NCBI GenBank assembly: GCA_049603795.1
Contig: JBMYSY010000019.1
Location: 2,870 to 66,869, forward strand
Direction: 5' to 3'
Length of the DNA: 64,000 nt
DNA from: Magnetovibrionaceae bacterium
GTDB lineage: Bacteria; Pseudomonadota; Alphaproteobacteria; Rhodospirillales; JBMYSY01
Made by a program: the position numbers and the translations under genes. The notes below the pieces were generated by a model. That model ran no database searches. It worked only from the letters and a program-made list of their open reading frames with translations, and was not told the origin of the DNA. Each line of letters starts with the position of its first letter. Position 1 is the first letter of the stretch. Below are positions 3,804 through 63,364 of the stretch, piece by piece.

Positions 3804-3934
3804 CATGGCTTGACGTTGTCCGTCTGCTGTTCCGCTTGCCTGCTGTCGGTGTGATCTCGATTCCGGGTTCGTGAAACGTTCGGGCCCGCCCTTCGGATGA
3901 GCCGAGGGTGGGTTTCTGCTAGAAGAGTAAGGCT

Positions 3935-5090: not shown

Positions 5091-6071
5091 CTAGCCCCGC
5101 TTCAAGTCAATCGTCGTCACTTCGCCCCGGCTGAAGAAGCGGTAGGGCAGGCCGGATGTGCCTGCACCCGGGCTGGTGTAGCCCTGCATGCCGCCCAACT
5201 GCCAAAGCCCTCTTGCCAGGTCCTTGTTGCGGGTCAGGTGGGTGACCAGAGGCCGCCCGCCCGGCAGGCAGATCTGGCCGCCGTGGGTATGGCCGCAGAG
5301 GTAGAGATGGTGGCCGGCCTCGGCTGCTTCCTGCGCCAGTTCGGGGGAATGGACCAGGGCGAGGCCAAAGCCTTCGACCGGGGGCTTCAATGCCGCATCG
5401 GCGTCCGTGCTGTAGAAACGGTTCACGTCGTCGGTGCCCGTGATGGAGAGCGCGCCGCCGCCCCTTCGCAGCACATGCCGTTCGTTACAGAGCAGGCGGA
5501 TGCCAAGCCGGGCCTCGAAGGCCTCCCCCATGCGGTGGTCGTCGTGATTGCCGAGCGTGGCAACCACACCGTCGCGGGCCTTCACGGCGTCCAGGATCTT
5601 TGCCATCGGTTCCATGATTTGTTCGAACGGGCCGTCGTCACCCATGCGGTAGTCCCCGGTCATGACGCAGAGATCGACTTCCCGGCCCTTGAGCTGTTCG
5701 GCCAGGCGGTCACCGAGGCCCGGCAGGGCATCGAGATGAAGATCGGTCAGGTGCAAGATGCGATACCCCTCGAAAGCCTCCGGCAGGACCGAAGAGGTGA
5801 TGGTCAGCTGGCGGTCCTGCAGATCCAGGGCATTGGCCCGACCGCGGTTGCCCAGGCCGACCATCTCGACACCTCTTCCGAAACAGGCCATGGCGCGGTG
5901 GAAAAGGTCATCCCTGCGGGGGAGCTTCGTCCGTTCCGGGGATTGATAGAGACCGGAGGCCTCCATCATCGCCCTTCTTTTTAACCACAAAAGTCTAAGG
6001 GCTTTTGTCTTTGCCGATGTCTGATATGGAAAGTGAGCTTCCGATGGTGCCTGTTCAAGGGGCAGGGACAT
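5091..6071 (-). CDS. Metallophosphoesterase (calcineurin-like, YaeI/YkuE type)
   Basis: Motifs present: LHLTDLHLD, TGDY, GNHD and GHTHGGQ. The long plus-strand ORF 4533-5984 is its antisense shadow. Confidence 0.85.
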   Translation of the reverse strand: MSLPLEQAPSEAHFPYQTSAKTKALRLLWLKRRAMMEASGLYQSPERTKLPRRDDLFHRAMACFGRGVEMVGLGNRGRANALDLQDRQLTITSSVLPEAFEGYRILHLTDLHLDALPGLGDRLAEQLKGREVDLCVMTGDYRMGDDGPFEQIMEPMAKILDAVKARDGVVATLGNHDDHRMGEAFEARLGIRLLCNERHVLRRGGGALSITGTDDVNRFYSTDADAALKPPVEGFGLALVHSPELAQEAAEAGHHLYLCGHTHGGQICLPGGRPLVTHLTRNKDLARGLWQLGGMQGYTSPGAGTSGLPYRFFSRGEVTTIDLKRG

Positions 6072-6320
6072 GGTGGCTTCTCCGGTCTATGGCCGGACAC
6101 CTCGTCCGGACCCTCGGGTGTACAAAGAGCAACCGACATGCCAGGGCCGTGGGGCGGAATTGGGGCCCTTTGAGGGTCATTTTGCAGCAAAACCGTCGCG
6201 TTTTGCGGATCGAGTCGCAACTTGCAGTCCCAGGCCCAGCAGAGAGGCGTTGGCCGCGAGAAAGCTCAAAGCACCGGAAAATCAGGGGAAACGTGGGCTG
6301 CATCACAGCCAATCGAATAT

Positions 6321-30614: not shown

Positions 30615-30899
30615 ATGACCAAGTCCGAACTCATTCAAAAAATTGCCGAATCTAATCCGCATCTTTATCAGCGCGATGTGGAAAGAATCGTGACGACGAT
30701 TTTTGACGAGATCACCAACACGCTGTCCCAGGGCGACCGGGTCGAACTGCGGGGCTTCGGTGCTTTCTCCGTCAAGGAACGCGGTGCTCGCGTGGGCCGC
30801 AACCCGCGCACCGGAGAGGCGGTGGATGTGGATGCGAAATACATCCCCTATTTCAAAACCGGCAAACAGCTGCGCGAAAAGCTGAACACGGACGGTTGA
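30615..30899 (+). CDS. ihfB: Integration host factor subunit beta
   Basis: [26 protein letters not shown]...[27 protein letters not shown]. Confidence 0.95.
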
Positions 30900-31512: not shown

Positions 31513-33030
31513 TCAGCGGGCCGTGACGGTGACGAGGGCGGCGTCATCGAGTGGGGGGGGCTTATCGGAGGTCATGCGCGCAACGGTCGCCTCGGCGGTT
31601 CCGCAGATGCGATAGGTCGTTGCCAGGGCGTCCACCTCTTCCGCCGTCTCCGCGAGACCGTCCGAGAAGATGAGCAACCGGTCGTCGGCCCGGAGATCGA
31701 TGGTGGCTTGCCGGAACGCCTCCGTCGTCGGAAGGCCGAGCAGTGGGCCGTCGGTGTCGATCCGCTGGGAGCTCTCACCTTTCAGGAGTAGCGGTGGCGG
31801 ATGGCCGGCGGAGGCAATGCTGAGGGGCCCGTTGTCCGCCAGGCCGAGGACCAACCCGCTGGCCAGGGTCTCAGAGAAAAGCGGGTCGCCCGACATGACG
31901 TCGGAGAGCGCGCCCAGCAGGTCGGCGGGGCCTGAGAGGCTGGCGTCCCGGGCAAGGCCGCTGAGGCAGCCGGAAAGGCCCTGGGCCAGGAAAGACGCGG
32001 TTTCGTCATGGCCCATGACGTCGATCAGGACGATGGCCTGCCAGCCCTTCAGAGCGAAATGACGCAGCAGATCGCCGCCGCCGATGCCGGCGGGCCGGAC
32101 GACGCCTTCGATCCCAAACCGGCCGATCTGTCCGGGCAGATGGGGTGCCATGGCCTCGTTAATTCGTCGATCGACGCGCATGCCATGGCTGCTGGTCAGT
32201 TGCCGTGACCGGTTGAGGACGCGGTCGAGCACGGCCAGCAGGCGGTCTTTGGTCACGGGTTTTTCCAGATAGTCATCGATCCCGAGGGGTGTCGCGGCGG
32301 CCCGGCTCTCGGCGTCCTGGCGCCCGGTGAGGAAGAGGAAGGGGAGGGTCGCGCCGTCTTCCCGCTCGGCCAGGGTCTTGCGCAGGCCAAAACCATCCAG
32401 CCCCGGCAGCGAAATGTCCGAGATGATGACGTCAGCAGTTCCGGGCGCTTTTCCGGGCGCTTTTCCGGGTTTGGCGGCCAGATAGCTCTCCGCGCTGTCG
32501 AAAACCTCGATCCGAAAACGCTCCCGGACAAAGAGCGAAACCAGGCGCTGAAAGGCCGGGTCGTCCTCGATCAGGTGGACCAGGGGGCGTCGGTCGGGCG
32601 GTGTCGGGCCTGTGAAGTGGAGCAGATGGTGGTTGAGGCCATCATCGGACAACAGCGCGCTTCGGTAAGACAAGCCCCCGGCGGACTGGCTGGCGAGAGC
32701 AAGTCCCATGCCCCCTTCCAACAGTTCGCCCCGGAGATCCCGGGTCCGGGCCACCTGCAAGGCGTTCTCGCTCTCTTCGAAGGCCCCGCCGTCGTCGGAG
32801 ATATCGAGAGCCCAGGTTTCGCCGGGCGTGAGCGTGACCACAAGGGCTGTCGCCTTTGGCTCTCCATGGCGGACGATGTTGGTGAAAATCTCGGAGGCGG
32901 CGAGCAGCAGACGACCGGCCTCCGTCTGGTCAAACCCGGCAGCGCTCAGGCGCGGGAGCAGACCGGCACGCAGGCGCGCCGGTCCCTCCAGGTTCGCATC
33001 GAATGTCTGCCGCCAAACCTCAGGCTGCAT
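31513..33030 (-). CDS. Fusion protein: RsbW-like anti-sigma Ser kinase (HATPase) domain, receiver domain and PP2C/SpoIIE phosphatase
   Basis: N-terminus is AASEIFTNIVRHG...LDISDDGGAF (HATPase_c_2-like). Middle is LIEDDPAF...DVIISDISLPGLDG...YLEKP (REC). C-terminus is GGDLL...LIDVMGHD...DDAALVTV (SpoIIE). Its start overlaps the glmM stop by 11 nt. Confidence 0.85.
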   Translation of the reverse strand: MQPEVWRQTFDANLEGPARLRAGLLPRLSAAGFDQTEAGRLLLAASEIFTNIVRHGEPKATALVVTLTPGETWALDISDDGGAFEESENALQVARTRDLRGELLEGGMGLALASQSAGGLSYRSALLSDDGLNHHLLHFTGPTPPDRRPLVHLIEDDPAFQRLVSLFVRERFRIEVFDSAESYLAAKPGKAPGKAPGTADVIISDISLPGLDGFGLRKTLAEREDGATLPFLFLTGRQDAESRAAATPLGIDDYLEKPVTKDRLLAVLDRVLNRSRQLTSSHGMRVDRRINEAMAPHLPGQIGRFGIEGVVRPAGIGGGDLLRHFALKGWQAIVLIDVMGHDETASFLAQGLSGCLSGLARDASLSGPADLLGALSDVMSGDPLFSETLASGLVLGLADNGPLSIASAGHPPPLLLKGESSQRIDTDGPLLGLPTTEAFRQATIDLRADDRLLIFSDGLAETAEEVDALATTYRICGTAEATVARMTSDKPPPLDDAALVTVTAR

Positions 33031-34387
33031 TCTCGAGTTCCTCTGCGATGCGCATGACGGCTTCGCGGATGGCAGTGGCGTCTTCGCCTTCGCCCAGGAT
33101 CCGGATCAGGGGCTCCGTACCCGAGGCACGCACAAGCAAGCGGCCTTTGTCTTCCAACTGCGCGGTCTCGCGGTCAATGGCGGACTTCACGGCTTGATCA
33201 TCCAGGATTGCCTTGTTCGCTGTTCGAACATTTTGCTGGCTTTGCGCGAAGGGTGTAAAGCGGGTGCAGATTTCACTCGCCGGGCGTTCGTCCACAACCA
33301 GGGCCGCCAGAACCTGCAACGCGGCCACAAGGCCGTCACCGGTCGTGGCCCCTTTCCCGATGATCACATGGCCGGAGGATTCTCCACCCAGCACGGCCCC
33401 GGTTTCGCGCATCATCCGGACGACATTGCGGTCCCCGACCGGCGCACGGTGCAGCACGATGTCCTGGTCCGACAGGTGCTTGTCGAGGGCCATGTTCGAC
33501 ATGACGCTGGCAACCGCACCGCCGCTGCTTAAGGTCCCGGCCTTTTTCATGCGGGCTGCCACCAGCGCGATGATCTGATCGCCGTCGATGACCTGGCCTT
33601 TCTCGTCACAGAGGATCAATCGGTCACCGTCGCCGTCGAAGGCGATGCCCAAGTCGGCTCCGGTGCGGATGACCTCCGCCCGCAGGGCCCGCGTATCGGT
33701 CGATCCGCAGTCCTGGTTGATGTTGAAGCCGTCCGGCTCGCAGCCGATGACGGAAATATCGGCACCCAGTTCGCTCAGGACCTGAGGGGCCACGCGATAG
33801 GTGGCACCATGGGCACAGTCGACGACCAGTCGCATGCCTTCGAGGGTCAGGTCTGTGGGAAAGCTGCGCTTGGCGGATTCGATGTAGCGCGCGACGGCAT
33901 CGTCCAGGCGTTTGGCACGGCCCAGTTCATCGGCCTCGACGCGAAGGGTCGTGAGATCGCCTTGGACCAGGGCTTCAATCTCGTCCTGTTCGGCATCCGA
34001 AATCTTGTAGCCGTCGGATCCGAACATCTTGATGCCGTTGTCGGTGTAGGGATTGTGCGAGGCCGTGATCATGATGCCGAAATCCGCCCTCAACGAGGTC
34101 GTCAGCATCGAGACCGCCGGGGTCGGCATGGGGCCCAGCAGAACCGGATCGACCCCACCGGAGACCAGACCCGCGGTCAGGGCGGATTCGATCATGTAGC
34201 CGGAAAGGCGGGTATCCTTGCCGATCACCACACGGTGACGAGTTTCGCCCTTGGCAGCCGGATTGCGCGGGGTGCGAGACCGGAGAACCTTGGCGATGGC
34301 TAGGCCCACTTTCAGGACCGTGCAGGGGGACATCGCGTCGGCGTTTGCCTTGGCGCGGATGCCGTCGGTGCCGAAGAGTTTCGTCAT
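33020..34387 (-). CDS. glmM: Phosphoglucosamine mutase
   Basis: MTKLFGTDGIRAKAN, the active-site TASHNP, and the GEQSGH-like GESSGH. Confidence 0.95.
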   Translation of the reverse strand: MTKLFGTDGIRAKANADAMSPCTVLKVGLAIAKVLRSRTPRNPAAKGETRHRVVIGKDTRLSGYMIESALTAGLVSGGVDPVLLGPMPTPAVSMLTTSLRADFGIMITASHNPYTDNGIKMFGSDGYKISDAEQDEIEALVQGDLTTLRVEADELGRAKRLDDAVARYIESAKRSFPTDLTLEGMRLVVDCAHGATYRVAPQVLSELGADISVIGCEPDGFNINQDCGSTDTRALRAEVIRTGADLGIAFDGDGDRLILCDEKGQVIDGDQIIALVAARMKKAGTLSSGGAVASVMSNMALDKHLSDQDIVLHRAPVGDRNVVRMMRETGAVLGGESSGHVIIGKGATTGDGLVAALQVLAALVVDERPASEICTRFTPFAQSQQNVRTANKAILDDQAVKSAIDRETAQLEDKGRLLVRASGTEPLIRILGEGEDATAIREAVMRIAEELENAA

Positions 34388-34518
34388 GCCGGAAAGTCCT
34401 CGTCGAAGATCATGTCGCCCTCGGCCCAGTTCCAATCGTCGAGGGAAAGATCATTGGCGAAGCCGTTGATCAGGGTTTCGGAGTTGACGTCTTCGATTTC
34501 GTTCCAGTTTTTGGCCAT
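34384..34518 (-). CDS. Small acidic protein (44 aa), translationally coupled to glmM
   Basis: AGGAGG lies 6 nt upstream of the ATG at 34518. The product is MAKNWNEIEDVNSETLINGFANDLSLDDWNWAEGDMIFDEDFPA. The stop overlaps the glmM ATG (ATGA). A sigma-54 promoter lies upstream. Confidence 0.5.
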   Translation of the reverse strand: MAKNWNEIEDVNSETLINGFANDLSLDDWNWAEGDMIFDEDFPA

Positions 34519-34555
34519 CGGGGCCTCCTGTCTCAAAAGGGTTTGAACGTTCAAG

Positions 34556-34572
34556 AGCAAGGGCGATGCCAA
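34556..34572 (-). promoter_or_regulatory. Sigma-54 promoter (P1): TTGGCATC-GCCC-TTGCT
   Basis: The minus strand reads CTTTGGCATCGCCCTTGCTCTTGAACGTTCAA. The -12 GC lies 39 nt upstream of ATG 34518. The promoter is divergent from the LuxO-like activator gene. A perfect 12-bp palindrome TTGAACGTTCAA (34543-34554) spans the predicted start. Confidence 0.65.
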
Positions 34573-34754
34573 AGGTCTAAGTTATTGAAAAATATATTTT
34601 GTTTTTCCAGCCGCCTGGTTTCTCCGGCTTGTTTTTTCGCATCCTGCGACGGCTCGTTTTCAAAATGCGGCGCAGCCCGGACCCCACCATCGGGAGAATT
34701 GCGGGGGTCAGGCCGAACCGCTACGGTTATCCCGAATCCAAAGGAGGTAGACCG

Positions 34755-36206
34755 ATGACGCCATCCGACCCGTTTCGCGTGCTGTTGATCGAAGACGATC
34801 TGTCCATGGCGCGGATCTGTCAGGGCTACCTGAAGGATACGGGCTACCGGGTCGATCATGCCGCCAACGGCAAGGATGCCTTGGAACTGATCGACAGCAA
34901 CCTGCCCCATGTGTTGCTGCTGGACCTGAAGCTGCCGGATATGGACGGCTTCGACATTCTGCGCCAGGTGAAGGAAAAGGGACTGCCGCTGGTCACCATC
35001 GTCGTCACCAGCCAGGCTTCCATGTCGACGGCGATCGAGGCGATGCAGCTGGGCGCTAAGGACTTTCTGGTAAAACCCTTCGCCAAAGAACGCTTGATCA
35101 CGACCCTGAAGAACGCCGAGGAACTGCAACATCTGGAACAGGTGGTGGAGACCTACCGTTCCGAGATTGATGTTCGACAGTACCACGGCTTCATCGGCTC
35201 CTCGCTGGCCATGCAGGCGGTTTACCGCATTGTCGGGGCTGCGGCGGGCAGCAAGGCTTCCGTCTTCATCACCGGCGAATCAGGCACAGGCAAAGAGGTC
35301 TGCGCGGAAGCCATTCACCGCCAGAGCGCGCGCGCCAAGAAGCCGTTCATCGCCATCAACTGCGGCGCCATTCCCCATGATCTGATGGAAAGTGAAATCT
35401 TCGGCCATGTGAAAGGGGCCTTCACCGGCGCGCACCAGGACCGCGAAGGGGCCGCCAAGCAGGCTGACGGCGGCACACTGTTTTTGGACGAAGTGGGCGA
35501 GATGGACATCTCGTTGCAGCCGAAACTGCTGCGGTTCCTGCAGACCGGGCGGTTCCAGAAGGTTGGCGGTGCGGGCGAGCAAGAGGTGGACGTGCGCATC
35601 GTCTGCGCCACAAATCGGGATCCTCTGGAGGAAATTCAGGCGGGCCGTTTTCGCGAAGACCTTTACTATCGCCTCCACGTCCTACCGATCCTGTTGCCGC
35701 CGCTCCGCGACCGGGAAGGGGATGTGGTGGAATTGGCGGAACACTTCCTCGGCGTCTATTCGAAGGAGGAGGGCAAGGCTTTCAAGTCCTTCTCGCCGGA
35801 GGCCCAGGCGATCCTGGCCGCCTACCCCTGGCCCGGCAATGTGCGCCAGATGCAGAACGTCATCCGCAACATCATCGTCCTGAACCAAGGGGATGTTGTG
35901 GAGGCCGACATGCTGCCGAGCCCGCTGGACAGTTTTTCGGCGGTAACGGCCATGGCGGCACTCCCACAGCCCCTGGCCCAGGCGGGAGCCGTCCCCGCCT
36001 CTCAGGGCGCACCTGCCGGAGCACCGGCACCGGTTGTCGATGATGGCGTGATTGTACCCCTGGCCCAGGTGGAACGGGAAACGATCGAGCGCGCCATCCG
36101 GCTTTCCGGCAACAACATCCCCCGCGCGGCCAAAAGCCTGGGGATCAGTCCGGCTACGATTTATCGCAAGAAGCAGGTCTGGGAAGTCCAGGGCGAAGAG
36201 CCCTGA
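34755..36206 (+). CDS. Sigma-54-dependent response regulator (bacterial enhancer-binding protein), LuxO-like
   Basis: AAGGAGG RBS. REC domain (VLLLDLKLPDMDG). AAA+ domain with GESGTGKEVCAEAIH, the GAFTGA sigma-54 contact loop and RFREDLYYRL. C-terminal Fis-type HTH. The overall string pattern is very close to Vibrio LuxO. Confidence 0.9.
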   Translation: MTPSDPFRVLLIEDDLSMARICQGYLKDTGYRVDHAANGKDALELIDSNLPHVLLLDLKLPDMDGFDILRQVKEKGLPLVTIVVTSQASMSTAIEAMQLGAKDFLVKPFAKERLITTLKNAEELQHLEQVVETYRSEIDVRQYHGFIGSSLAMQAVYRIVGAAAGSKASVFITGESGTGKEVCAEAIHRQSARAKKPFIAINCGAIPHDLMESEIFGHVKGAFTGAHQDREGAAKQADGGTLFLDEVGEMDISLQPKLLRFLQTGRFQKVGGAGEQEVDVRIVCATNRDPLEEIQAGRFREDLYYRLHVLPILLPPLRDREGDVVELAEHFLGVYSKEEGKAFKSFSPEAQAILAAYPWPGNVRQMQNVIRNIIVLNQGDVVEADMLPSPLDSFSAVTAMAALPQPLAQAGAVPASQGAPAGAPAPVVDDGVIVPLAQVERETIERAIRLSGNNIPRAAKSLGISPATIYRKKQVWEVQGEEP

Positions 36207-37712
36207 TCAGGTCCAAAGCCCCGGGATATCGATCTCCAACAACTGGCCCAAGGACCGGTCCGCAAGATCGGGCAGACCTTCGGCCAACATGCGGGCTGTC
36301 TCGGCATCGTCAAGGCGGTAAGAGGTCTCAACCGCACGCGCGGCCTGCAGCAACTGGGTGAGGCCATGGGCCCCGGAGCTGCTGCCCAGGGTGTGAACCT
36401 CCCGCTCGATCACGCTGTCATCACCGGCGGACAGGGCACGCTCGACCTCTTCGATCCGCTTACGGGTCTCCTCCACATAGAGCGCGACCAGTTCGGGCAA
36501 CATGTCGGGGTCTGTGTCGTCGCCCAGTTTTTTCAGGATCGCGACATCGACCAGGCCCGGTTCCGAAGCGTCTTGGGCTTCGTCATCGTCATCTGGCCGA
36601 TTGTCCGTCGGCTCGACATCCGGGGACGCAGCCGCCTGGAGGTCGCGGCCCAATAGGTTGTTCAGGGTGGCCAACAGAAAGTCGCGGTCGATGGGTTTGG
36701 GGACAAAAGCATCCATGCCCGCGGCCAGCAGCCTTTCCCGGTCGCCTTTCATCGCGAGCGCTGTTATCGCAACGATGGGGATAGCAGCCTTTTCCGGCGA
36801 AAGCTTTCGGATAGCACGGGTCGCCTGAATGCCGTCCATCTCGGGCATCTGGATGTCCATCAGCACAAGATCAAAGTCTCGGGCCTGGACGGCTTCGACA
36901 CCTTCGCGACCGTTGACCACACTTTCCGACAGGCAGCCCCACCTCGCGATAATGCCTTCGATAACGATCCGGTTGATGGCGTTGTCTTCGACGATCAGAA
37001 CCCGCGCGGGCGGCAAGGGGTCGTGTTCTGCCGAAGGTTCCGGGATCAAATCGGGTTGCGGGGGGCTCAACCGGATCAGGGGGACAAAAAAACGGGTGCG
37101 TCGTTCGTTCCGATCGAAGGATGCTTCCTCCAGGCCGCCGCCCATCATGGCCAAAAGGCGCTCGGCATTTTCCCTGGCAAACAGGAAGGGGAGACCGGGA
37201 TCCGCCTCGGCTGCTTCCTGTTTGAGGGTCAGGGTGAAGGTTATCCGCGCCTCTGAATCATCAACGTCGACGGAGAGGCTGAGCCTCGCGTTTTCTGTAC
37301 CGTGGGAAAGGTTGCGTGCGAGCGACAGCAACACCTGCCCCAATCGGCCCTGGTCCGCTTCGAACCAGACCGAGGCACTGTCGGCTGGCGGGCGAATATC
37401 CAGGCGGCAGGCTTTTTGTTTCAGGAAACGGCTCAAAAGGGTATCGACCGCTTCCAGCAGGTTCGACAGCTGCACGGGCTGGGGCTCCAGCGTCAATTCG
37501 CCGGTCATCAGACAGTGTAGGTCCTGTACTTCGTGGGTCAGGGCCGTCAAAAGCCCGGTGGCCTCCCGAGCACCGTCCAGAAGATCCTTTTGGGTCGGAT
37601 CGGAAACCATATCGGCGCAGGCGTTGATCCGACGCCGGAGCTCCGAGATCAGGGGGCTGAGCTCTGCGTTCATGGCCGCCAGATAGGCCAGATTGTCCGT
37701 TCCCTGTGTCAT
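36207..37712 (-). CDS. Soluble degenerate-HK / receiver / Hpt phosphorelay protein
   Basis: The DHp-like segment reads MNAELSPL where SHELRTPL is expected, so there is no phospho-His. The HATPase-like region lacks the DxGxG box. The REC domain is intact (DLVLMDIQMPEMDG) and so is the C-terminal Hpt (HTLGSSSGAHGL). No TM segment is present. Confidence 0.8.
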   Translation of the reverse strand: MTQGTDNLAYLAAMNAELSPLISELRRRINACADMVSDPTQKDLLDGAREATGLLTALTHEVQDLHCLMTGELTLEPQPVQLSNLLEAVDTLLSRFLKQKACRLDIRPPADSASVWFEADQGRLGQVLLSLARNLSHGTENARLSLSVDVDDSEARITFTLTLKQEAAEADPGLPFLFARENAERLLAMMGGGLEEASFDRNERRTRFFVPLIRLSPPQPDLIPEPSAEHDPLPPARVLIVEDNAINRIVIEGIIARWGCLSESVVNGREGVEAVQARDFDLVLMDIQMPEMDGIQATRAIRKLSPEKAAIPIVAITALAMKGDRERLLAAGMDAFVPKPIDRDFLLATLNNLLGRDLQAAASPDVEPTDNRPDDDDEAQDASEPGLVDVAILKKLGDDTDPDMLPELVALYVEETRKRIEEVERALSAGDDSVIEREVHTLGSSSGAHGLTQLLQAARAVETSYRLDDAETARMLAEGLPDLADRSLGQLLEIDIPGLWT

Positions 37713-37736: not shown

Positions 37737-38174
37737 TTAAGAGGCCAGGCCCAATCCTGCGATTGCCCGCTGCAGGCAACCCATCTGACCGGTTCTGGCA
37801 TCCAGTTCCAACGACAGTTTGCGCCCCAGATCGGGCAAGTCCAGAGGTTTGACGAAATAGGCGAAGCAACCAAGGCCGAGGGCGCGCTCGATATCCCCCA
37901 TGCAGGAGCGACCGGTCATCATGGCGACCGGTGTCTTTCGCAAATTGCGATCCTTTCGGATAAGCGAAAGAACATGCGGGCCGGAGAGGTCGGGCATCAT
38001 CCAATCCAACAGGATGGCAGAGGGAGCCTCGGCCCTGGCCTTGATCAGGCCCTCATTCCCGTCCTTTGCCGTAACCACGCTGTACTGGAAGCGTTTCGAG
38101 AGATGCAAACTGAGCTGCATGCGCAGACTGGCGTCGTCGTCGACCACCAGGATGGATTTTCGCATTTTGAACAT
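37737..38174 (-). CDS. Single-domain response regulator (CheY-like)
   Basis: ILVVDDD, ILLDWMMPDLSG and YFVKP receiver motifs. AAGGAG RBS. Confidence 0.85.
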   Translation of the reverse strand: MFKMRKSILVVDDDASLRMQLSLHLSKRFQYSVVTAKDGNEGLIKARAEAPSAILLDWMMPDLSGPHVLSLIRKDRNLRKTPVAMMTGRSCMGDIERALGLGCFAYFVKPLDLPDLGRKLSLELDARTGQMGCLQRAIAGLGLAS

Positions 38175-38209: not shown

Positions 38210-38225
38210 AGCAACAGGCATGCCA
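38210..38225 (-). promoter_or_regulatory. Sigma-54 promoter (P2): TGGCATG-CCTG-TTGCT
   Basis: The minus strand reads CCCTGGCATGCCTGTTGCTCC. The -12 GC lies 37 nt upstream of ATG 38174, the first gene of the REC/phosphorelay operon. Confidence 0.65.
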
Positions 38226-49732: not shown

Positions 49733-50151
49733 GTGCAGTCCTCCTGCACCGGGGTTTGGGAAACGGGGAAAATACCCAGGGTGGGTTGCACGTCCTGCCA
49801 GCGCGCATCCAGGCCCTGCATCATGTGAAGAGCCAGGCGGATGTCCTGGGCCGCCGGGCCTTCCAGGCCACCGGCATGCGCCCGGGCGGCGCGGTCCCAC
49901 TGACGGTTCGCAGCATGGAGTGCCGCCGGGTAGACCAGGCCGACCCCTTCGTCGGTCAGGCGCTGCAGGGCAGCCTTGATGCAGGTCAGGCGATCACTGT
50001 TCCGCCGCACGGTCGACGTTCTGTGGAACACGTCCGGTTCCATCACCGGGGTCTGCTCCGCCCAGCCACCACCTTCGTAGACAGGCCAGGGCGCGCAGGC
50101 CGAGGCACCGGCCATCAGGCCGAGGGCCAGAAAAGCTCCGAGCCGGTTCAT
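49729..50151 (-). CDS. Hypothetical lipoprotein (140 aa)
   Basis: Lipobox LMAGASAC. ATGA overlaps link it to both neighbours. Confidence 0.65.
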   Translation of the reverse strand: MNRLGAFLALGLMAGASACAPWPVYEGGGWAEQTPVMEPDVFHRTSTVRRNSDRLTCIKAALQRLTDEGVGLVYPAALHAANRQWDRAARAHAGGLEGPAAQDIRLALHMMQGLDARWQDVQPTLGIFPVSQTPVQEDCT

Positions 50152-50450
50152 GCCGCCACCTCTTGGGCCTGGACCGGAATGGAACGATCCAGCCGCACCA
50201 TCTTGATCAGGTCCAGCGGTTGACCGGAAACGTCGGCGAGGATGATGCCGCGTTTTTTCGGGGCCAGACGCTTGAACAGAAAAACGATCCCCCCAAGGCC
50301 TGAAGAGTCCATGAAACGGGTCAGCGAAAAGTCCAGGACGACGGTGCCCTCGCCGCTCTGCGACAGATCGTCAAAGCGCTGACGAATGCCGTCGATGGCG
50401 GCGGCATCGAAGTTTTCGGGCAGAATGAAGCGGGTTTCGGTGTTCGACAT
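50148..50450 (-). CDS. STAS-domain anti-sigma-factor antagonist (SpoIIAA/RsbV-like)
   Basis: VVLDFSLTRFMDSSGLGGIVFLFKRL carries the conserved phosphorylatable DSSG context. GAGGAGG RBS. Confidence 0.85.
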   Translation of the reverse strand: MSNTETRFILPENFDAAAIDGIRQRFDDLSQSGEGTVVLDFSLTRFMDSSGLGGIVFLFKRLAPKKRGIILADVSGQPLDLIKMVRLDRSIPVQAQEVAA

Positions 50451-50495
50451 TTGAGCCTCCTCATGGGCTAGCGTTCAGGTGTTGCCCGAGGGGAG

Positions 50496-50511
50496 TGCAG
50501 CCGGCGTGCCA
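50496..50511 (-). promoter_or_regulatory. Sigma-54 promoter (P3): TGGCACG-CCGG-CTGCA
   Basis: The minus strand reads CCCTGGCACGCCGGCTGCAC. The -12 GC lies 47 nt upstream of the STAS ATG (50450). A perfect IHF consensus AATCAATAATTTA lies on the minus strand at 50528-50540. Confidence 0.65.
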
Positions 50512-50587
50512 GGGGAATATCCAACCTTAAATTATTGATTTTGTTATATTTCCAAATTCCCTCTGATCGAAGGAAACTGGAAAGTTT

Positions 50588-50624
50588 CGAAAAATGCGAA
50601 ACCCCGCCGCAATTTGCGACGGGG
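50588..50624 (-). terminator. Rho-independent terminator after the priming sugar transferase gene
   Basis: The minus strand reads CCCCGTCGCAAATTGCGGCGGGG (one mismatch in the stem) followed by TTTCGCATTTTTCG. Confidence 0.6.
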
Positions 50625-55779: not shown

Positions 55780-58131
55780 TCAGTTCAAACGGCGTGCCAG
55801 ACCTTGGGCCGCGAAGTCCGCGATCCTCCTTCGCAATTCATCCAATTTCTGATTACTCAGGCCCCGGGCCTCCTCCCAGTGTCCCGGAATGTGACCGGCA
55901 AGGTCCGCCAATAGCCGCGCTGCGCGGGCATCTTTTGCCGCCTTGCGCTCCAGCCAGAGGAGCCATCGCAGGTCCAGAATACCGTCGATCAGGGCCATCA
56001 GGCCGGCATCAAGATCCGGCTGAAAAGCGCAGATTTCAGCCATTGGCGGCAGGTATTGGAGGTCCGCTTCCCGGCCATCGGTGGGATCAAAAGGATCGGC
56101 TGAGGGCATCCTCGCGTGCCACTGCAGATAGCCTTGCGCGCCCGACCGCCAAAGATAAAATCCCGCCGCCAGACGGGGCCGAGCCATGTTGTAGAGCCAG
56201 ACCTGAGCCCCCGTTTCCTTCGTCAATTCGATGTCGGAAACATCCGCCCCGAAGCCCGCATTGATCAGGCCAAGGTCGAGGCCAGCGAGCAATCTGCCGT
56301 CCCGGGGGCGGTTCAAATGGCCCGCGAGGCGAGGTTTCTTTGCATTCTGCGAAATCGAATTGCGAATTGCATCTGCCAGAGGTGCCGGATCATGGCGCGA
56401 GCCCGCATTGCCCGGTTCATCCGCGATGGACCAATAAGGGCTTTGCAGGCCGCGATCCGCCGCCGCCTTCTCCACCTGGCGCAGGATATCCACCACGCCA
56501 CCGATCCCAAGCCGCGCCTTGATGCGCTTCGGGTTGGCGTAGTCCAGCACATGATCGAAGCGCGAGAGTCGGCCCAGAGCCGTAACATAGGCTTCAACGC
56601 CCACCACATCCGGGTTTGGCAGAGGGGGGGCAACCGCAGTCAAACCCAAGCGCTCCAGGACGTCGAGATCACAAGCCGCCTGCATCTCCCCCAGATCAGG
56701 GTGATCCGCCCGATCCGTCAGGTGCGGTGCCAAGTGCGGTGCCAGGTCCAGGTAGACACCGATGGCCTGAGCGGGCCGTGGCAGAGCAAGATCGAGCACG
56801 CGGACGGAGAAGGCCCGTTCCCGACCCTGGCCATCCGAGATCAAGCCCCGATAGCGTCCGGGCGGCGTTCCCTGGGGCACAGAAACCAGAAGGCTCACCG
56901 GCCGGTCGCGCAGGGGCACCCGGTCCAACCAGGTCTCGTCGGCGCGCAGGTGGCTTGCCGCCTGTATCAAGCGTCGGCCCTGTGGCGGCGTCCGGGTCAG
57001 ACGCCATTGCCCCGTCCGGACGACGACCGGCAGCCGCCGGCCCTCCCGCCCTGGTGCTTCCACCAAAGGCTTACGGCCTTCCCCCAATTTCAAGGCGGTT
57101 CGGATTTCGCCGGAACCGCCGGGGACAAGATCAATGTGTAAACGCTCTGTGGCCAGGGCTGCCGGAGCCTGCTCGATCACCCAGCCCTCCCGCCGCCAGG
57201 CCCGTCGATCCTTCCGGGCCTCGACAGCCGCCCCGGCACCTGAACCCAGGGGATGGGCCAGCAGACCGGCGATGAAGGTGGCAGCATTGGAATCTCCGGC
57301 GAAATCGAGGGTAATCCCTCCCCCGTCGCTGATGGCCTCGACAACCAGCGGTGCGTCGCCCGGCCGTTCCAAGGACGGCCAGGCCGAGCCCCGGTCCGAA
57401 GGCTCCAGGTCGCGACCGGCCAGGTAGATGTCTCTCGTCCAGGTTTCCAGATCCCGCCTTTCCAGGAGCCGCACCTCGCCATTGACCTTGATGCGGCGCT
57501 CTTTCGGATAGGTCCGGGTCTGCCAGGCACCACGATCGCCGATCCATAACAACAACCGCCATTGGCCTTCGGGCAAAGGCAGGACAAGCCGCTCGACACC
57601 CCCCAGCCCATCGCGCAACAAGGGATCGTCGAGACTGCGGAGGATCGGCTTCGGACGCCCTGAAACAATGATCGGATCATTTTCGTCCGCGCGATTGAAG
57701 CCCGGCGCGCGAGCGCTGCGCCCTCCGCCCAGGTCCCAGGCATGGACCGGTGCCGATGGTCCTCTTGGGAGGCGGGGGTAGGTCTCGGTCTCATCGACGG
57801 CGATCTCTCCCCTCGCGGCAAAGACCTCGATGAAGCGGATATCGGATGGCTCGAGCCGATGGCCGTTTGATCGATGCAGATCGTCCAGAGCCAGTCGCAG
57901 GCGGAAAGGGCCGGGTGCGACCTCGCGTTCCACGTTGGCGCGGCTGGCATAGTTTTCCGAGCTTCCATCCTCGATGCGCAAGACCACCAGGGCTCCTTCG
58001 GGCCCCGCGATCCCCCGCACCGTGAAGACATGACCCGTCAGGTCACTGGTCGCATCAAAACGCCTTTCCCAGGCCTCAGCGGACGAACCCGCCAGAAGCA
58101 CGGCCACCAGGATCAAAGTGCGGAGAGCCAT
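55780..58131 (-). CDS. Exported 783-aa hypothetical protein in the EPS cluster (possibly polysaccharide-active)
   Basis: Signal peptide MALRTLILVAVLLAGSSAEA. I recognise no confident family, and any glycoside-hydrolase assignment would be a guess. Confidence 0.7.
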   Translation of the reverse strand: MALRTLILVAVLLAGSSAEAWERRFDATSDLTGHVFTVRGIAGPEGALVVLRIEDGSSENYASRANVEREVAPGPFRLRLALDDLHRSNGHRLEPSDIRFIEVFAARGEIAVDETETYPRLPRGPSAPVHAWDLGGGRSARAPGFNRADENDPIIVSGRPKPILRSLDDPLLRDGLGGVERLVLPLPEGQWRLLLWIGDRGAWQTRTYPKERRIKVNGEVRLLERRDLETWTRDIYLAGRDLEPSDRGSAWPSLERPGDAPLVVEAISDGGGITLDFAGDSNAATFIAGLLAHPLGSGAGAAVEARKDRRAWRREGWVIEQAPAALATERLHIDLVPGGSGEIRTALKLGEGRKPLVEAPGREGRRLPVVVRTGQWRLTRTPPQGRRLIQAASHLRADETWLDRVPLRDRPVSLLVSVPQGTPPGRYRGLISDGQGRERAFSVRVLDLALPRPAQAIGVYLDLAPHLAPHLTDRADHPDLGEMQAACDLDVLERLGLTAVAPPLPNPDVVGVEAYVTALGRLSRFDHVLDYANPKRIKARLGIGGVVDILRQVEKAAADRGLQSPYWSIADEPGNAGSRHDPAPLADAIRNSISQNAKKPRLAGHLNRPRDGRLLAGLDLGLINAGFGADVSDIELTKETGAQVWLYNMARPRLAAGFYLWRSGAQGYLQWHARMPSADPFDPTDGREADLQYLPPMAEICAFQPDLDAGLMALIDGILDLRWLLWLERKAAKDARAARLLADLAGHIPGHWEEARGLSNQKLDELRRRIADFAAQGLARRLN

Positions 58132-59243: not shown

Positions 59244-59971
59244 GCCGCGATCTCCTTGATTCCAGGGGTGAGCGTTCGGATCACCCGGGCCGGGACGCCG
59301 CCCGCCAGGACCCCCGGCGGCAGGTCACGGCTGACCACACTTCCGGCCGCCACGATGGTCCCTTTTCCGATGGTGACCCCGGCGGAAACGGTGACTCCCG
59401 TCCCCAGCCAGACATCCCGCTCCAGCTTGATCTCGCCGATCTGGTCTTCGGTATCCGGCAGACCCTTGGCGCGATCCCGGGCGTCAATCGGGTGACCGGG
59501 ATAACCCGCCAGAAAGGCGCGGCCCGCGATACGAACATTGTCTTCCAGAACGACGCGGGTGCCGACGGCGATGGTGGTTTGCCAACCGATCCCGACGTTA
59601 TCGCCGACGACCAGTTCCGGTGTCTCCCGCCCGGCCCAGCGGCCCGTGATGGTGGTCGCCGCGGACAAGCGGCAGTCCGAACCGAAACTGATCCGCACCG
59701 GACCACCCACGTAGGGCAGACCGCCATAGAGGTTGAGGCGCGGGGCCTTGCCTTGAAGCCGGCTTTTGAACATCGGAGTGTAATAGAAAACCCGAGTGCC
59801 CCAGGCCGTTACGTTCTGAATGGCGCGATGTAGAGACCAGAGCCCGCTGTGGATCCCTGGGATCACCGGCACCTCGAAGGTGCACCAGGCGCCGTGAGCC
59901 CGGAGCACCAGCCGGGCCAAGGGGCTTTCGCCTGCCTTGATCCGGCGTTTAAGGGTGTTCAGCCTGCTCAT
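59240..59971 (-). CDS. Hexapeptide-repeat acyl/acetyltransferase (WcaF-like)
   Basis: Left-handed beta-helix repeats (VGDNVGIGWQTTI, VVLEDNVRIAG, ERDVWLGTGVTVSAGVTIGKGTIVAAGSVV). Confidence 0.85.
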   Translation of the reverse strand: MSRLNTLKRRIKAGESPLARLVLRAHGAWCTFEVPVIPGIHSGLWSLHRAIQNVTAWGTRVFYYTPMFKSRLQGKAPRLNLYGGLPYVGGPVRISFGSDCRLSAATTITGRWAGRETPELVVGDNVGIGWQTTIAVGTRVVLEDNVRIAGRAFLAGYPGHPIDARDRAKGLPDTEDQIGEIKLERDVWLGTGVTVSAGVTIGKGTIVAAGSVVSRDLPPGVLAGGVPARVIRTLTPGIKEIAA

Positions 59972-61803
59972 TCCACCGTCACCGATTTCGCGAGGTTGCG
60001 CGGCTGGTCCACGTCGGTGCCCTTGGCCAGGGCGACGTGATAGGCCAGCAATTGCAGCGGCACGACGAAAGCCAGCGGAGCCAGGACGTCGTGACAGTCC
60101 GGCACGATCAGGATGTCGTCGGCGACGTCACCGGCCGCTTCGGCACCGGTCTGGTCCGTCACCAGCATCACCTTGCCGCCGCGCGCCTTGACCTCTTCCA
60201 TGTTGGAAACAGTCTTGGCGAAGAGCTCATCATGCGGTGCGATGACAACCACCGGCATCTCGTCGTCAATCAGCGCGAGCGGCCCGTGCTTCAACTCTCC
60301 GGCGGCATAGCCTTCGGCATGGATGTAGGTGATCTCTTTCAGCTTGAGGGCACCTTCCATGGCGATCGGATAGGCCGTGCCGCGCCCGATGAAGAGTGCG
60401 CTCGCGGCCTTGGTGAACTTGGATGCGGCGCTCTGGATGGCCTGATCGTCGGCGAGCATTTCCTCGAGCTTGGTGGGCAGCATGGCGAGCGACTTGATCA
60501 GCTCGATCTCGTCTTTCTCGCTCAGTGTGCCCCGTTCGCGCCCGGCCTGGATGGCCAGCGAGGCAAGAACAGCCAGTTGCGTCGTGAAGGCCTTGGTGGA
60601 GGCCACGCCGATTTCCGGTCCTGCTTCCGTCTGGACAAAACCATCAGCTTCGCGGGCCATGGAACTGGAAGGCACGTTGACGCAGGCCAGGGTCGGGCGA
60701 CCCTTTTCCTTGACGTAGCGAAGCGCTGCCAGCGTGTCCGCCGTCTCCCCCGATTGAGAGATAAACATCGCCGCCGACTTGTCACCGATCAAGGGATGGC
60801 GGTAGCGGTATTCAGAAGCGATGTCCACGTCGCAGGGCAGACCTGCCAATTGTTCGAACCAATACTTGGCCACGTCACCGGCGAAAGAAGAGGTGCCGCA
60901 GGCGATGATCGCAAGACGGTCGATATCGGCGAAGTTCATCGGCAGGCTCGTGGCCCGCAATTCCCCATCCGCCTGGTCGATCAGACCGGCGACGGTGCGA
61001 CGGATCGCCGCAGGCTGTTCGTGGATTTCCTTCATCATGAAGTGCCGGAAACCACCCTTGTCGACACTGGCACCGTTCGCATTCGACCGGCGGCGCGGTC
61101 GGGCGCGAAGCTTGCCATGTTCATCGCGGATCTCGTTCCAACCAGCTTCCAGGATCACCCGGTCGCCCTCTTCCAGATAGGTTACCTGATCGGTAACGTC
61201 GGCGAGCGCCAGGGCATCCGAGGCGATGAAGGTGGCATCCGGTCGATGACCGAGAACCAGGGGGCTGCCTTTGCGAGCGGCATACATGCGGCCTTCTTCC
61301 CCAGCCACAAGAATGCCGAGGGCAAAGGAGCCGTCCAGGCGCTCGATCGTGCGCTCGATGGCCTCATCGGTATCCAGGCCGACAGCGCGGTAGGACGCGA
61401 TCAGGTGGGGAATGACTTCCGAATCCGTCTCGCTGGTGAAGACATGGCCATCGGCCATCAGCTCAGAGCGCAGGCTCGCGTAGTTTTCGATGATGCCGTT
61501 GTGGACGACGGCAACGCCGGGATTGTCTTCGGCATCAACATGGGGATGGGCATTGCCGGTCACCGGCGCGCCGTGAGTGGCCCAGCGGGTATGGGCAATA
61601 CCGGCACGCCCCGCGACGGGCTGGTTCTGGAGAACGCTTTCGAGAGCGGCCAGCTTCCCCTTGGCCCGGCGGCGCTCGATCGGGCCTTCGCCCATCAGGG
61701 CAACCCCCGATGAATCATAGCCCCGGTATTCCAGGCGCTGCAGGCCGCCGATCAGATGGTCCAGCACGTTATGGCCATTCACGGCCCCGACGATGCCACA
61801 CAT
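59968..61803 (-). CDS. glmS: Glutamine--fructose-6-phosphate aminotransferase
   Basis: MCGIVGAV N-terminal nucleophile, two SIS domains, and C-terminal PRNLAKSVTVE. Confidence 0.95.
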   Translation of the reverse strand: MCGIVGAVNGHNVLDHLIGGLQRLEYRGYDSSGVALMGEGPIERRRAKGKLAALESVLQNQPVAGRAGIAHTRWATHGAPVTGNAHPHVDAEDNPGVAVVHNGIIENYASLRSELMADGHVFTSETDSEVIPHLIASYRAVGLDTDEAIERTIERLDGSFALGILVAGEEGRMYAARKGSPLVLGHRPDATFIASDALALADVTDQVTYLEEGDRVILEAGWNEIRDEHGKLRARPRRRSNANGASVDKGGFRHFMMKEIHEQPAAIRRTVAGLIDQADGELRATSLPMNFADIDRLAIIACGTSSFAGDVAKYWFEQLAGLPCDVDIASEYRYRHPLIGDKSAAMFISQSGETADTLAALRYVKEKGRPTLACVNVPSSSMAREADGFVQTEAGPEIGVASTKAFTTQLAVLASLAIQAGRERGTLSEKDEIELIKSLAMLPTKLEEMLADDQAIQSAASKFTKAASALFIGRGTAYPIAMEGALKLKEITYIHAEGYAAGELKHGPLALIDDEMPVVVIAPHDELFAKTVSNMEEVKARGGKVMLVTDQTGAEAAGDVADDILIVPDCHDVLAPLAFVVPLQLLAYHVALAKGTDVDQPRNLAKSVTVE

Positions 61804-61888
61804 GAGAAAACTCCTTTGACTGGTTCAATCCGTTTGAAACTGTTGACCGGAAGTGCAGGAGATGGGCCAGAATGCTATTCAAGTAAAA

Positions 61889-63364
61889 TCAATGACTTGA
61901 ATGACTTTGATCCGCGATTTGATTTGCGAAACGCAAACGCTTTTCGCGTTCTGAGAGGGCATAGCGCGTCACCGCCACGGTAAGCGCCAATTGGATGTAG
62001 ACCGGCCAGGTGAAACCCATGGTCAGGAAAGTCCCTGAGACCATAAAGCCCGCGAGCCCCGACTGGACCGCCTGGGCGAGGGCGTAGGCCTCTGGTTCAT
62101 AGGCCCCCTCGCCCGACTGGTCCGGTTGCAGCAGGAAAACGGATTGGCAGGCGGAACGAATGGTCAGGCCGATCATGGTCAGGAAACAACCGAGGCCCAG
62201 AAAACCCGTCTCAGCCATGACACCGAACCAGGTGGAATGGACCGCGTGGTTCTTTCCGTCCCAGAAACTTGAATAGGACCAGTAGTTGGAAAGGAAGTTG
62301 TTCAGGCCGACACCGGTCAGCGGGTGGGCCAGGGCCATGTTGAAGGCTGCACCCCAGGCATGGATGCGCCCCATTGCGGATTCATCGATGCCCTCTTCAT
62401 GGGCTCCGCCGGACGCGCGGTCGGAAACGCCGGCCAACACGAAGAGTACGGACAAGGCCGCAAGACCGACGCTGATCAACAGCGCCTTGTTTTTGACCCG
62501 CCGCCAGGCATAGACGCCCATGACAGCGGTGATCCCGAGCAACCCGCCCCGGCTTTGCGTTGCCACGATGGCGGCCACAAAGGCGATGAAGGCCAAGAGC
62601 CCGAGCAGCCTGGACCAACGGCCTATGCCCTTGGTCAGCATCAGCGCCAAGGCGAAACTCGCCGGAAACAGCAACACCAGGGACAAATCATTGGGATCGC
62701 CCAGCATGGAGCCGATATCCCGGCCGATCGTCACCCGCGTCCCCTCCACCAGGCCAATGCCCAGGGCTTTGTTTTGCAGGGTTACGGCAGCGACCAGCAG
62801 GCCGGATCCGATCATGACGCGGCTGGTCAGGTGAAAGGCCTTCAGCGAGCAGGACAGCCAGACAATGGCCAGGACCATGATGGCGATCTTGACGTAGGTG
62901 CCGGACCAACTGCCGAGAGCATCGCCCCGGTTTGTGGCCAGGAAAACACCGACGGTGGTGATGATGAAAAAGACCCCGAAGGCCGTCAGTTCCCGGCTCC
63001 AATAGACCTTCAATTTGCCACTCGCCAAGTTCCAGACGAGCGAAGCCAAGGTGCCGAGTGCCAGCAACTGCGGTATGCGGAGCGGGTAGAGCTGAGGGAA
63101 AACCTCGTGCAGCCGGAAGAAGGAAAAGACCACGAAGGCCAATACCATCCAGAAGGGTTTTACCAGGGCCATGACGATCGCGACCGGTGCCAGCCCCAGC
63201 GCGACCAGGACGACCGGATGACCGACCTTGGCCAGGGCCACGCCGAGCACCAGGGTTGCAATGACGGCCAGGATGGCCTGGCCGAGCCGACCGTTCGCCA
63301 GTTCGGAAACCGGCACAAAGACGTCGCTCAACCGAAGACGGGGAAGCGTGATCCGGCTCAACAT
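61889..63364 (-). CDS. O-antigen ligase / Wzy-like polymerase family membrane protein
   Basis: At least ten TM segments, with the periplasmic loop motif SRGGLLG...H..W typical of the family. Confidence 0.85.
   Translation of the reverse strand: MLSRITLPRLRLSDVFVPVSELANGRLGQAILAVIATLVLGVALAKVGHPVVLVALGLAPVAIVMALVKPFWMVLAFVVFSFFRLHEVFPQLYPLRIPQLLALGTLASLVWNLASGKLKVYWSRELTAFGVFFIITTVGVFLATNRGDALGSWSGTYVKIAIMVLAIVWLSCSLKAFHLTSRVMIGSGLLVAAVTLQNKALGIGLVEGTRVTIGRDIGSMLGDPNDLSLVLLFPASFALALMLTKGIGRWSRLLGLLAFIAFVAAIVATQSRGGLLGITAVMGVYAWRRVKNKALLISVGLAALSVLFVLAGVSDRASGGAHEEGIDESAMGRIHAWGAAFNMALAHPLTGVGLNNFLSNYWSYSSFWDGKNHAVHSTWFGVMAETGFLGLGCFLTMIGLTIRSACQSVFLLQPDQSGEGAYEPEAYALAQAVQSGLAGFMVSGTFLTMGFTWPVYIQLALTVAVTRYALSEREKRLRFANQIADQSHSSH

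Follow-up and report, generated by a model that had tools for sequence, protein, structure and literature searches.

A predicted sigma-54 promoter divergent from a LuxO/SypG-family activator precedes glmM in a syp-like polysaccharide locus of a magnetovibrionaceaen alphaproteobacterium

The 236-bp spacer at positions 34519-34754 of a 64,000-nt stretch of DNA from a Magnetovibrionaceae metagenome-assembled genome (MAG) separates two divergent transcription units: on one side a gene for a sigma-54 activator of the LuxO/SypG family, and on the other a 44-codon open reading frame (ORF) followed by glmM, the gene for phosphoglucosamine mutase. We refer to the whole 64,000-nt stretch as the window and give all gene coordinates as positions within it. 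We consider it likely that the spacer holds a sigma-54 promoter belonging to the regulon of the divergently encoded activator, within a locus resembling the syp/scv exopolysaccharide loci. This promoter appears to be one of about five sigma-54 promoters in the polysaccharide gene cluster. The apparent oddity of its position before glmM is thereby removed: glmM and a glmS gene of the same locus would supply precursors to a Syp-like system for biofilm polysaccharide and belong specifically to its regulon.

An earlier note, made from the sequence alone, had described this spacer as carrying a complete enhancer-type promoter, and every element that it listed lies where it was placed when the minus strand is read. 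Farthest downstream among the upstream activating sequence (UAS) boxes is the palindrome TCGCAGGATGCGA (TCGCA-GGA-TGCGA, 34649-34637), centered at about -98, which is a predicted site for the divergently encoded activator. It keeps the xxGCA-N3-TGCxx form of the LuxO UAS TTGCAWWWTGCAA, with two differing flank positions and a center that is not A/T. Both the LuxO UAS and the sites found by chromatin immunoprecipitation sequencing (ChIP-seq) in Vibrio cholerae resemble it (PMC10162802, PMC10328515), one of the latter sites being ttgcaaatcgcga (PMC10328515). A second, weaker and half-conserved box, CCGCATTTTGAAA (34670-34658), lies distally at about -119, its center 21 bp, or two helical turns, from that of the proximal box. 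Closer to the promoter, the A/T tract AAAATATATTTT (34589-34600), itself a 12-bp palindrome and the sole AT-rich patch amid surroundings of 60% GC, adjoins a core resembling the site of integration host factor (IHF). This IHF-like core, TTTCAATAACTTA (34590-34578), has one mismatch to the consensus core that we used, WATCAANNNNTTR, and begins 19 nt before the TGGCA of the -24/-12 element. The latter, TGGCATCGCCCTTGCT (TGGCAT-CGCCC-TTGCT, 34571-34556), presents the GG of the -24 position (34570/34569) and the GC of the -12 position (34558/34557) with exact sigma-54 spacing. By consensus spacing from this element, transcription is predicted to start near 34545, giving a leader of about 27 nt in which the Shine-Dalgarno sequence AGGAGG (34529-34524) lies 5 nt ahead of the ATG of the mini-ORF at 34518. 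A further 5-N3-5 palindrome, AACCGCTACGGTT (34716-34728), stands about 30 bp ahead of the start codon of the activator gene and could be an operator or promoter element of that gene itself.

The individual motifs differ widely in how far they exceed chance. Matches to the strict sigma-54 pattern TGGCAY-N5-TTGCW number three in the window against 0.15 expected; none of 100 shuffles of the window yielded three, and all three real matches are intergenic and upstream of ORFs on the same strand. The coupling of enhancer to promoter is likewise far from random: in 80 loci with homologous activators, an orthologous metagenomic locus (L085) and the window taken together, boxes of the form [TC][TC]GCA-N3-TGC[GA][AG] occur at -50 to -200 of 9 of the 31 strict sigma-54 promoters, against 0.22 expected, an enrichment of about 40-fold. 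The genes that follow strict sigma-54 promoters across these loci encode REC and STAS domain proteins, sugar transferases and epimerases. Within the window, tandem boxes spaced 19-21 bp apart are seen at three promoters (34571, 50511 and 6143). The IHF-like core taken alone, on the other hand, is not rare, with 27 one-mismatch matches in the window against 20 expected. The reading of the spacer as a full architecture typical of bacterial enhancer-binding proteins, with UAS, IHF-like bend site and -24/-12 element divergent from the activator gene, is supported. The remaining element of the earlier description, the perfect 12-bp palindrome TTGAACGTTCAA over the predicted start (34554-34543, about -9 to +3), is indeed present, yet neither statistics nor comparison lends it support: 24 perfect 12-bp palindromes occur in the window, the probability of one falling within this 236-bp spacer is about 0.06, which is not significant, and this one has no second copy in the window and is absent from L085, from a Thalassospira locus (L016) and from the paralogous promoters. 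It could be an operator or a product of chance.

The layout of UAS, IHF-like site and sigma-54 element is repeated on the minus strand before two further genes of the window. In the first unit (50148-50619), the boxes TCGCAAATTGCGG (50619-50607) and TCGCATTTTTCGA (50599-50587), a perfect IHF core AATCAATAATTTA (50540-50528) and the sigma-54 element TGGCACGCCGGCTGCA (50511-50496) precede a SypA-like STAS gene (50450-50148); in the second (59968-61936), the palindrome TTGCGTTTCGCAA (61936-61924), an IHF core that is perfect on the plus strand (61902-61890) and the sigma-54-like element TGGCCCATCTCCTGCA (61869-61854) precede a full-length glmS (61803-59968), whose product begins MCGIVG and combines a GATase with two SIS domains. 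The IHF-like site of the glmM promoter shares the core TCAATAAYTTA with the perfect core of the STAS promoter. The latter and the perfect core AATCAATTAGTTA before a Nisaea STAS gene (L049) both lie exactly 29 nt before TGGCA, a coincidence for which 0.16 instances are expected; the glmM site is 10 bp, one helical turn, nearer to its promoter than these STAS cores. Comparable evidence comes from orthologous operons. In L085, a luxO/sypG-like gene diverges from a 242-bp spacer followed by glmM and an overlapping sypE-like gene, with an overlap of 11 nt as in the window, and the spacer carries a box, TCTCAAAATGCGA, 97 nt upstream of the promoter, an A/T patch and the sigma-54 promoter TGGCCCCGCATTTGCT, with glmM about 26 nt farther on. 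The GlmM protein of this locus (P0006) is the closest one that shares a sypE-like neighbor, at 58% identity. In the Thalassospira locus, a glmM-sypE pair lies in a syp-like cluster behind a weaker sigma-54-like motif, CGGCAAGCAACTTGCA.

The gene content around the promoter is that of a polysaccharide system. The window encodes a STAS protein, a Wza-like exporter with SLBB and Poly_export domains, a Bac_transf priming transferase, glycosyltransferases of the GT2 and GT4 families, Wzz, Wzy (Wzy_C), a hexapeptide acetyltransferase and the full GlmS, and the locus holds SypA-, SypC-, SypE- and SypF-like genes. The SypA-like STAS protein matches the STAS domain with an E-value of 1e-12 and forms, with the SypE-like protein, the expected gene pair of a partner switch. 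The sypE-like gene (31513-33030, minus strand; 505 codons), which overlaps glmM by 11 nt, encodes an RsbW-type kinase domain (HATPase_c_2), a REC domain and a PP2C phosphatase domain of the SpoIIE type, and this domain logic matches that of SypE (PMC4517449); a metagenome scan with the protein returned generic REC-domain matches only. At the position of sypF, a gene on the minus strand (36207-37712) encodes a 501-residue REC-HPt phosphorelay protein, whose 230-residue N-terminal part gave no HisKA or HATPase Pfam match; possibly, this is a hybrid kinase that has degenerated or been truncated, as reported for Vibrio diabolicus SypF (PMC5801674). Judged by this gene content, the locus is a syp/scv-like exopolysaccharide locus. 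Such loci, of which scv of Vibrio parahaemolyticus is a syp-type representative, depend on sigma-54 and SypG, comprise several operons and have been reported earlier in two Rhodospirillales genera (PMC8941931), and in Enterovibrio coralii, a syp-like cluster has been described that contains a glmS gene (PMC5801674).

The activator gene (34755-36206, plus strand) encodes REC, AAA+ and Fis-type helix-turn-helix domains; its product matches Sigma54_activat with an E-value of 4e-69 and carries the motif GHVKGAFTGA. It is 54% identical to LuxO of Photobacterium angustum (5EP0) over the REC and AAA+ domains and shares 52-61% identity with homologs from numerous alpha- and gammaproteobacteria, including an Enterovibrio homolog (57%) located after sypE- and sypF-like genes. 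Indeed, in Enterovibrio, Grimontia and Psychromonas, the activator homologs are preceded by relatives of the 505- and 501-residue proteins of the window, in the order sypE-, sypF-, sypG-like. LuxO and SypG are paralogs of about 48% identity with overlapping UAS specificity, for TTGCAWWWTGCAA and TTCTCANNNTGMDWN, respectively (PMC10162802). Because the window activator lies in a syp/scv-like polysaccharide locus with SypE-, SypF- and SypA-like genes nearby, it is, by gene context, a SypG-like member of the LuxO/SypG family. Among the homologous loci, we also observed bidirectional enhancer units in gammaproteobacteria, in which divergent pairs of strict sigma-54 promoters share one central box (L063 2086-2240, with box TCGCATTTTGCGA; L079 652-839, with box TTGCAAAATGCAA).

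Among the closest known parallels is the syp locus of Vibrio fischeri, with its SypG-dependent sigma-54 promoters and syp enhancer (Yip 2005, Ray 2013 as cited in PMC10162802, PMC4517449, PMC5801674). There, too, a LuxO-paralogous activator with REC, AAA+ and helix-turn-helix domains is encoded inside a polysaccharide locus; there are several sigma-54 operons, each with an upstream enhancer of 13-15 bp of the form xxxCA-N3-TGxxx; and the gene set includes SypA (STAS), SypE (kinase-REC-phosphatase), a SypF-like relay, a Wza-like exporter, glycosyltransferases, Wzz, Wzy, an acetyltransferase and a priming sugar transferase. In the window, enhancer boxes accompany the sigma-54 units at 6143, 34571, 50511 and 61869, with none recognized at 38225. 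The window differs from the V. fischeri locus in that its enhancer is a symmetric TCGCA-N3-TGCGA rather than TTCTCANNNTGMDWN, the syp enhancer motif that we took from PMC10162802; its sypE-like gene shares with glmM an operon of their own, which diverges from the activator gene; and it has its own glmS and glmM, prominent IHF-like sites and an orphan 44-residue ORF heading an operon. With L085 carrying TCTCAAAATGCGA and a Grimontia locus (L035) carrying TTCTCATTTTGATGA, the window box looks like a motif related to the V. fischeri enhancer that varies by lineage. These findings would extend the LuxO/SypG enhancer grammar of tandem 5-N3-5 boxes, phased IHF site and -24/-12 element beyond Vibrionaceae, into marine alphaproteobacteria of the Rhodospirillales type, and would make TCGCA-N3-TGCGA a usable motif for predicting the regulon in MAGs. 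They do not overturn the current understanding of these systems.

The earlier note had called a housekeeping gene behind a sigma-54 promoter unusual, and the comparative data offer an explanation. The glmM gene (33020-34387, minus strand) is a phosphoglucosamine mutase gene, its product scoring 554 bits with TIGR01455 against a cutoff of 448, and has GAGGA 9 nt ahead of its ATG. The canonical glmM is located after ftsH-folP, and neither folP nor ftsH was found in the window. The best homologs of the window GlmM reach only 59% identity; the syp-linked copies share 52-58% identity with one another and with folP-linked copies, against 85% between two folP-linked copies, which would fit a view of syp-linked glmM genes as fast-evolving accessory copies. 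Two proteins that had appeared to be the closest GlmM relatives (P0003 and P0004; 591 and 562 residues, L081 1546-3321 and L082 1067-2755) were rejected as assembly chimeras with internal duplications that inflate their bit scores. The locus's own glmS with its matching promoter architecture, the glmM-sypE pair in L085 and L016 and the divergence of the locus-linked GlmM copies together account for the arrangement. Given the recurring glmM-sypE units and the presence of glmS, the placement of glmM behind a sigma-54 promoter therefore points to precursor supply for an amino-sugar polysaccharide. A comparable logic is seen in enterobacteria, where GlrR (QseF), sigma-54 and IHF control glmY and glmZ (PMC3045617): there, as proposed for the window, sigma-54 promoters with activator sites and IHF govern the supply of hexosamine, by way of GlmS, for the envelope. 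However, the enterobacterial control works indirectly, with small RNAs that target the glmS mRNA as intermediaries (PMC3045617), whereas in the window glmM and glmS lie directly behind sigma-54 promoters and the activator belongs to another subfamily.

We infer the following course of events. Once phosphorylated by way of the adjacent SypF-like REC-HPt relay, the activator would bind both boxes of the tandem pair: TCGCAGGATGCGA, the stronger, near -98, and its weaker partner near -119. Between these and the promoter, the DNA would be bent by the A/T tract and IHF-like site (about -40 to -55) such that the activator oligomer could reach the sigma-54 holoenzyme at TGGCAT-N5-TTGCT, and ATP hydrolysis would open the promoter. 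The resulting mRNA, starting from near 34545, would encode the 44-residue acidic protein, GlmM and the SypE-like kinase/phosphatase. GlmM, together with GlmS of the same locus, whose gene has the same promoter layout, would raise the supply of the precursor UDP-N-acetylglucosamine during induced polysaccharide synthesis, and the SypE-like protein would subsequently tune the SypA-like STAS protein.

Several observations weigh against this interpretation. The proximal box has the central triplet GGA, as opposed to A/T in the Vibrio sites. Many textbook promoters have the center of the UAS and the IHF core farther upstream than the positions of about -98 and -39, respectively, seen in this spacer. 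No rpoN gene was found in the window. No close relatives of the genome were found in any collection searched, the best GlmM and activator homologs being 59% and 61% identical, respectively. Finally, the mini-ORF, for which no homolog was found, is absent from the orthologous operons of L085 and L016, both of which have short leaders lacking any ORF, and its relevance is accordingly uncertain.

The mini-ORF itself (MAKNWNEIEDVNSETLINGFANDLSLDDWNWAEGDMIFDEDFPA; 34384-34518, minus strand; 44 residues, net charge -11, three tryptophans) is annotated by NCBI as a hypothetical protein. It had been described in the earlier note as fused to glmM, of which one part stands: the promoter does precede the ORF, and the two reading frames are arranged for translational coupling. 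There is no fusion, as the TGA (34386-34384) overlaps the glmM ATG (34387-34385) as ATGA in a different frame. This overlap, typical of coupled genes, is the reason to link translation of the mini-ORF to that of glmM, and its strong Shine-Dalgarno sequence, short length and stop codon overlapping the next start are shared with known translationally coupled upstream small ORFs. Unlike a classical leader peptide, on the other hand, it has neither an attenuator or terminator nor a run of regulatory codons. An attenuator leader peptide or riboswitch was accordingly rejected: there is no terminator on the minus strand, the fold has a z-score of -0.63, and the stop codon of the ORF runs into the start codon of glmM. 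The coding statistics are strong, with a codon log-likelihood of 0.62 per codon, exceeding that of 98% of chunks of real genes and of all 243 small ORFs of the window, whereas the other two frames score -0.91 and -0.24 per codon; the GC content at third codon positions (GC3) is 0.77. Since these statistics are joined by a consensus AGGAGG at a 5-nt spacing from an ATG start, we hold that the mini-ORF is probably translated, by a fair balance of the evidence.

Searches for homologs of the mini-ORF found none. A word-indexed search of 5.8 billion proteins retrieved only the mini-ORF itself; exhaustive phmmer against 1.84 billion representatives added only a repeat protein (P0122) with a shared motif, LDSWSWAED, judged a chance match; tblastn against the 80 activator loci and a metagenome scan using a 62-residue extended frame gave no match; blastn and tblastn found no paralogs in the window; acidic Trp-containing small ORFs across all loci yielded one unrelated match only; and neither Pfam nor NCBIfam offered a family. 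Conservation in relatives, which the earlier note had named among its conditions, was seen for the sigma-54 promoter, which recurs in L085 and, as a weaker motif, in L016, but not for the ORF. A single-sequence AlphaFold model is a lone helix of low confidence, with a predicted local distance difference test (pLDDT) score of 60. These results, along with the ORF-less leaders of the orthologous operons and glmM's own GAGGA, speak for the alternative that the promoter and operon are as described, with the 44-codon ORF being a chance or nonfunctional frame in a lineage-specific insertion in the 5' leader and glmM using its own ribosome-binding sequence. The codon scores of the three frames, the Shine-Dalgarno spacing and the ATGA overlap speak against this alternative, and we regard it as unlikely, though it deserves serious consideration. 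Conversely, the product could be a new small regulator that is confined to this lineage, possibly of de novo origin, and that would act on its operon partners, its synthesis being limited to times when the SypG-like activator is firing. This is a speculative proposal to which we give little weight; if it were true, the mini-protein could, for instance, control hexosamine flux by binding GlmM, or bias the SypA partner switch by binding the SypE-like kinase/phosphatase. The orphan mini-protein is a small lead for small-protein biology.

The remaining alternatives fare considerably worse. One holds that the motifs are coincidental and that glmM is transcribed from an unrecognized alphaproteobacterial sigma-70 promoter, in keeping with GlmM being normally essential and constitutive. 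Our scan of 33900-35000 found no sigma-70-like sites, albeit with the Escherichia coli consensus, which captures alphaproteobacterial sigma-70 promoters poorly. The enrichment of the sigma-54 pattern, the coupling of boxes to promoters, the recurrence of the layout, in full or in part, at four other genes of the window and the equivalent promoter in L085 nevertheless render this alternative very unlikely.

A further alternative takes up the earlier note's comparison of the spacer to the site of qrr1 in Vibrio: the activator would be LuxO, the divergent sigma-54 promoter would make a Qrr-like or dual-function RNA, and the ORF and glmM would be incidental. The resemblance is real in that the two arrangements share the activator family, a palindromic 5-N3-5 UAS present in two copies and a divergent sigma-54 promoter, as at luxO-qrr1 (PMC10328515), and Vibrio LuxO (NF041946) is the best NCBIfam model for the activator. 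However, the score of 600 bits falls below the cutoff of 800 for this model. Moreover, no Qrr or any other Rfam family was found in the spacer region at E-values up to 10, and none reached gathering score in the window or in 11 homologous loci; no terminator separates the promoter from glmM on the minus strand, and the fold of the leader (z = -0.63) is not significant; a LuxU-type small HPt gene is missing after the activator; and the product would be an mRNA for three proteins. With the syp-like context added, the Vibrio LuxO/qrr1 frame fails. A Qrr-like small RNA from the glmM promoter was rejected, having no Rfam match and a transcript that would run directly into three coding genes, and we consider the whole alternative highly improbable. 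The notion that the mini-ORF is the precursor of a ribosomally synthesized and posttranslationally modified peptide, prompted by its small size, an N-terminal part that is acidic and leader-like, and a C-terminal part rich in Trp, with a WNW motif that recalls the darobactin core WNWSKSF, can be set aside as far-fetched, as the window encodes no CxxxCxxC radical-SAM protein, its coupling is to glmM and sypE rather than to maturation or export genes, and no precursor family was matched.

Beyond the three units with the full layout, the window contains two further sigma-54 promoters on the minus strand, both matching the strict pattern. In the first unit (5091-6227), the boxes CTGCAAGTTGCGA (6227-6215) and CCGCAAAACGCGA (6208-6196), 19 bp apart, precede a strict sigma-54 element (6143-6128) and a gene for a calcineurin-like metallophosphoesterase (6071-5091), with no IHF-like site recognized at this promoter. 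Lying 28 kb from the cluster and having no counterpart in the V. fischeri syp locus, this gene is a possible extra member of the regulon. The second strict promoter, TGGCATGCCTGTTGCT (38225-38210), precedes a gene for a single-domain REC protein (37737-38174), upstream of which no LuxO/SypG-type box is recognizable; homologs of this gene lie behind sigma-54 promoters in L031 and L016. A strict box, TCGCAAATTGCGA, occurs within its coding region (37938-37950). Another, TTGCATTCTGCGA (56340-56352), is found inside a 783-codon ORF (55780-58131) that has no Pfam family, with no sigma-54 element found nearby.

The window also includes ihfB (30615-30899), the gene for the IHF beta subunit, which belongs to a conserved housekeeping block, aroA-rpsA-sppA-ihfB, and lies about 600 bp beyond the point where the glmM-sypE operon ends. 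The genome therefore has IHF, while the proximity of ihfB to the operon is probably coincidental. Near the start of the window, cas1 (741-1811; Pfam Cas_Cas1, E-value 2e-29) is followed about 1.2 kb downstream by a CRISPR array (3042-3800) with about 11 copies of the 36-nt repeat ACTGTAGCACAGGCTGTTTTGGAGAGCAGCTACAG and spacers of about 30 nt, whose repeats yield spurious repetitive ORFs at 3344-3874.

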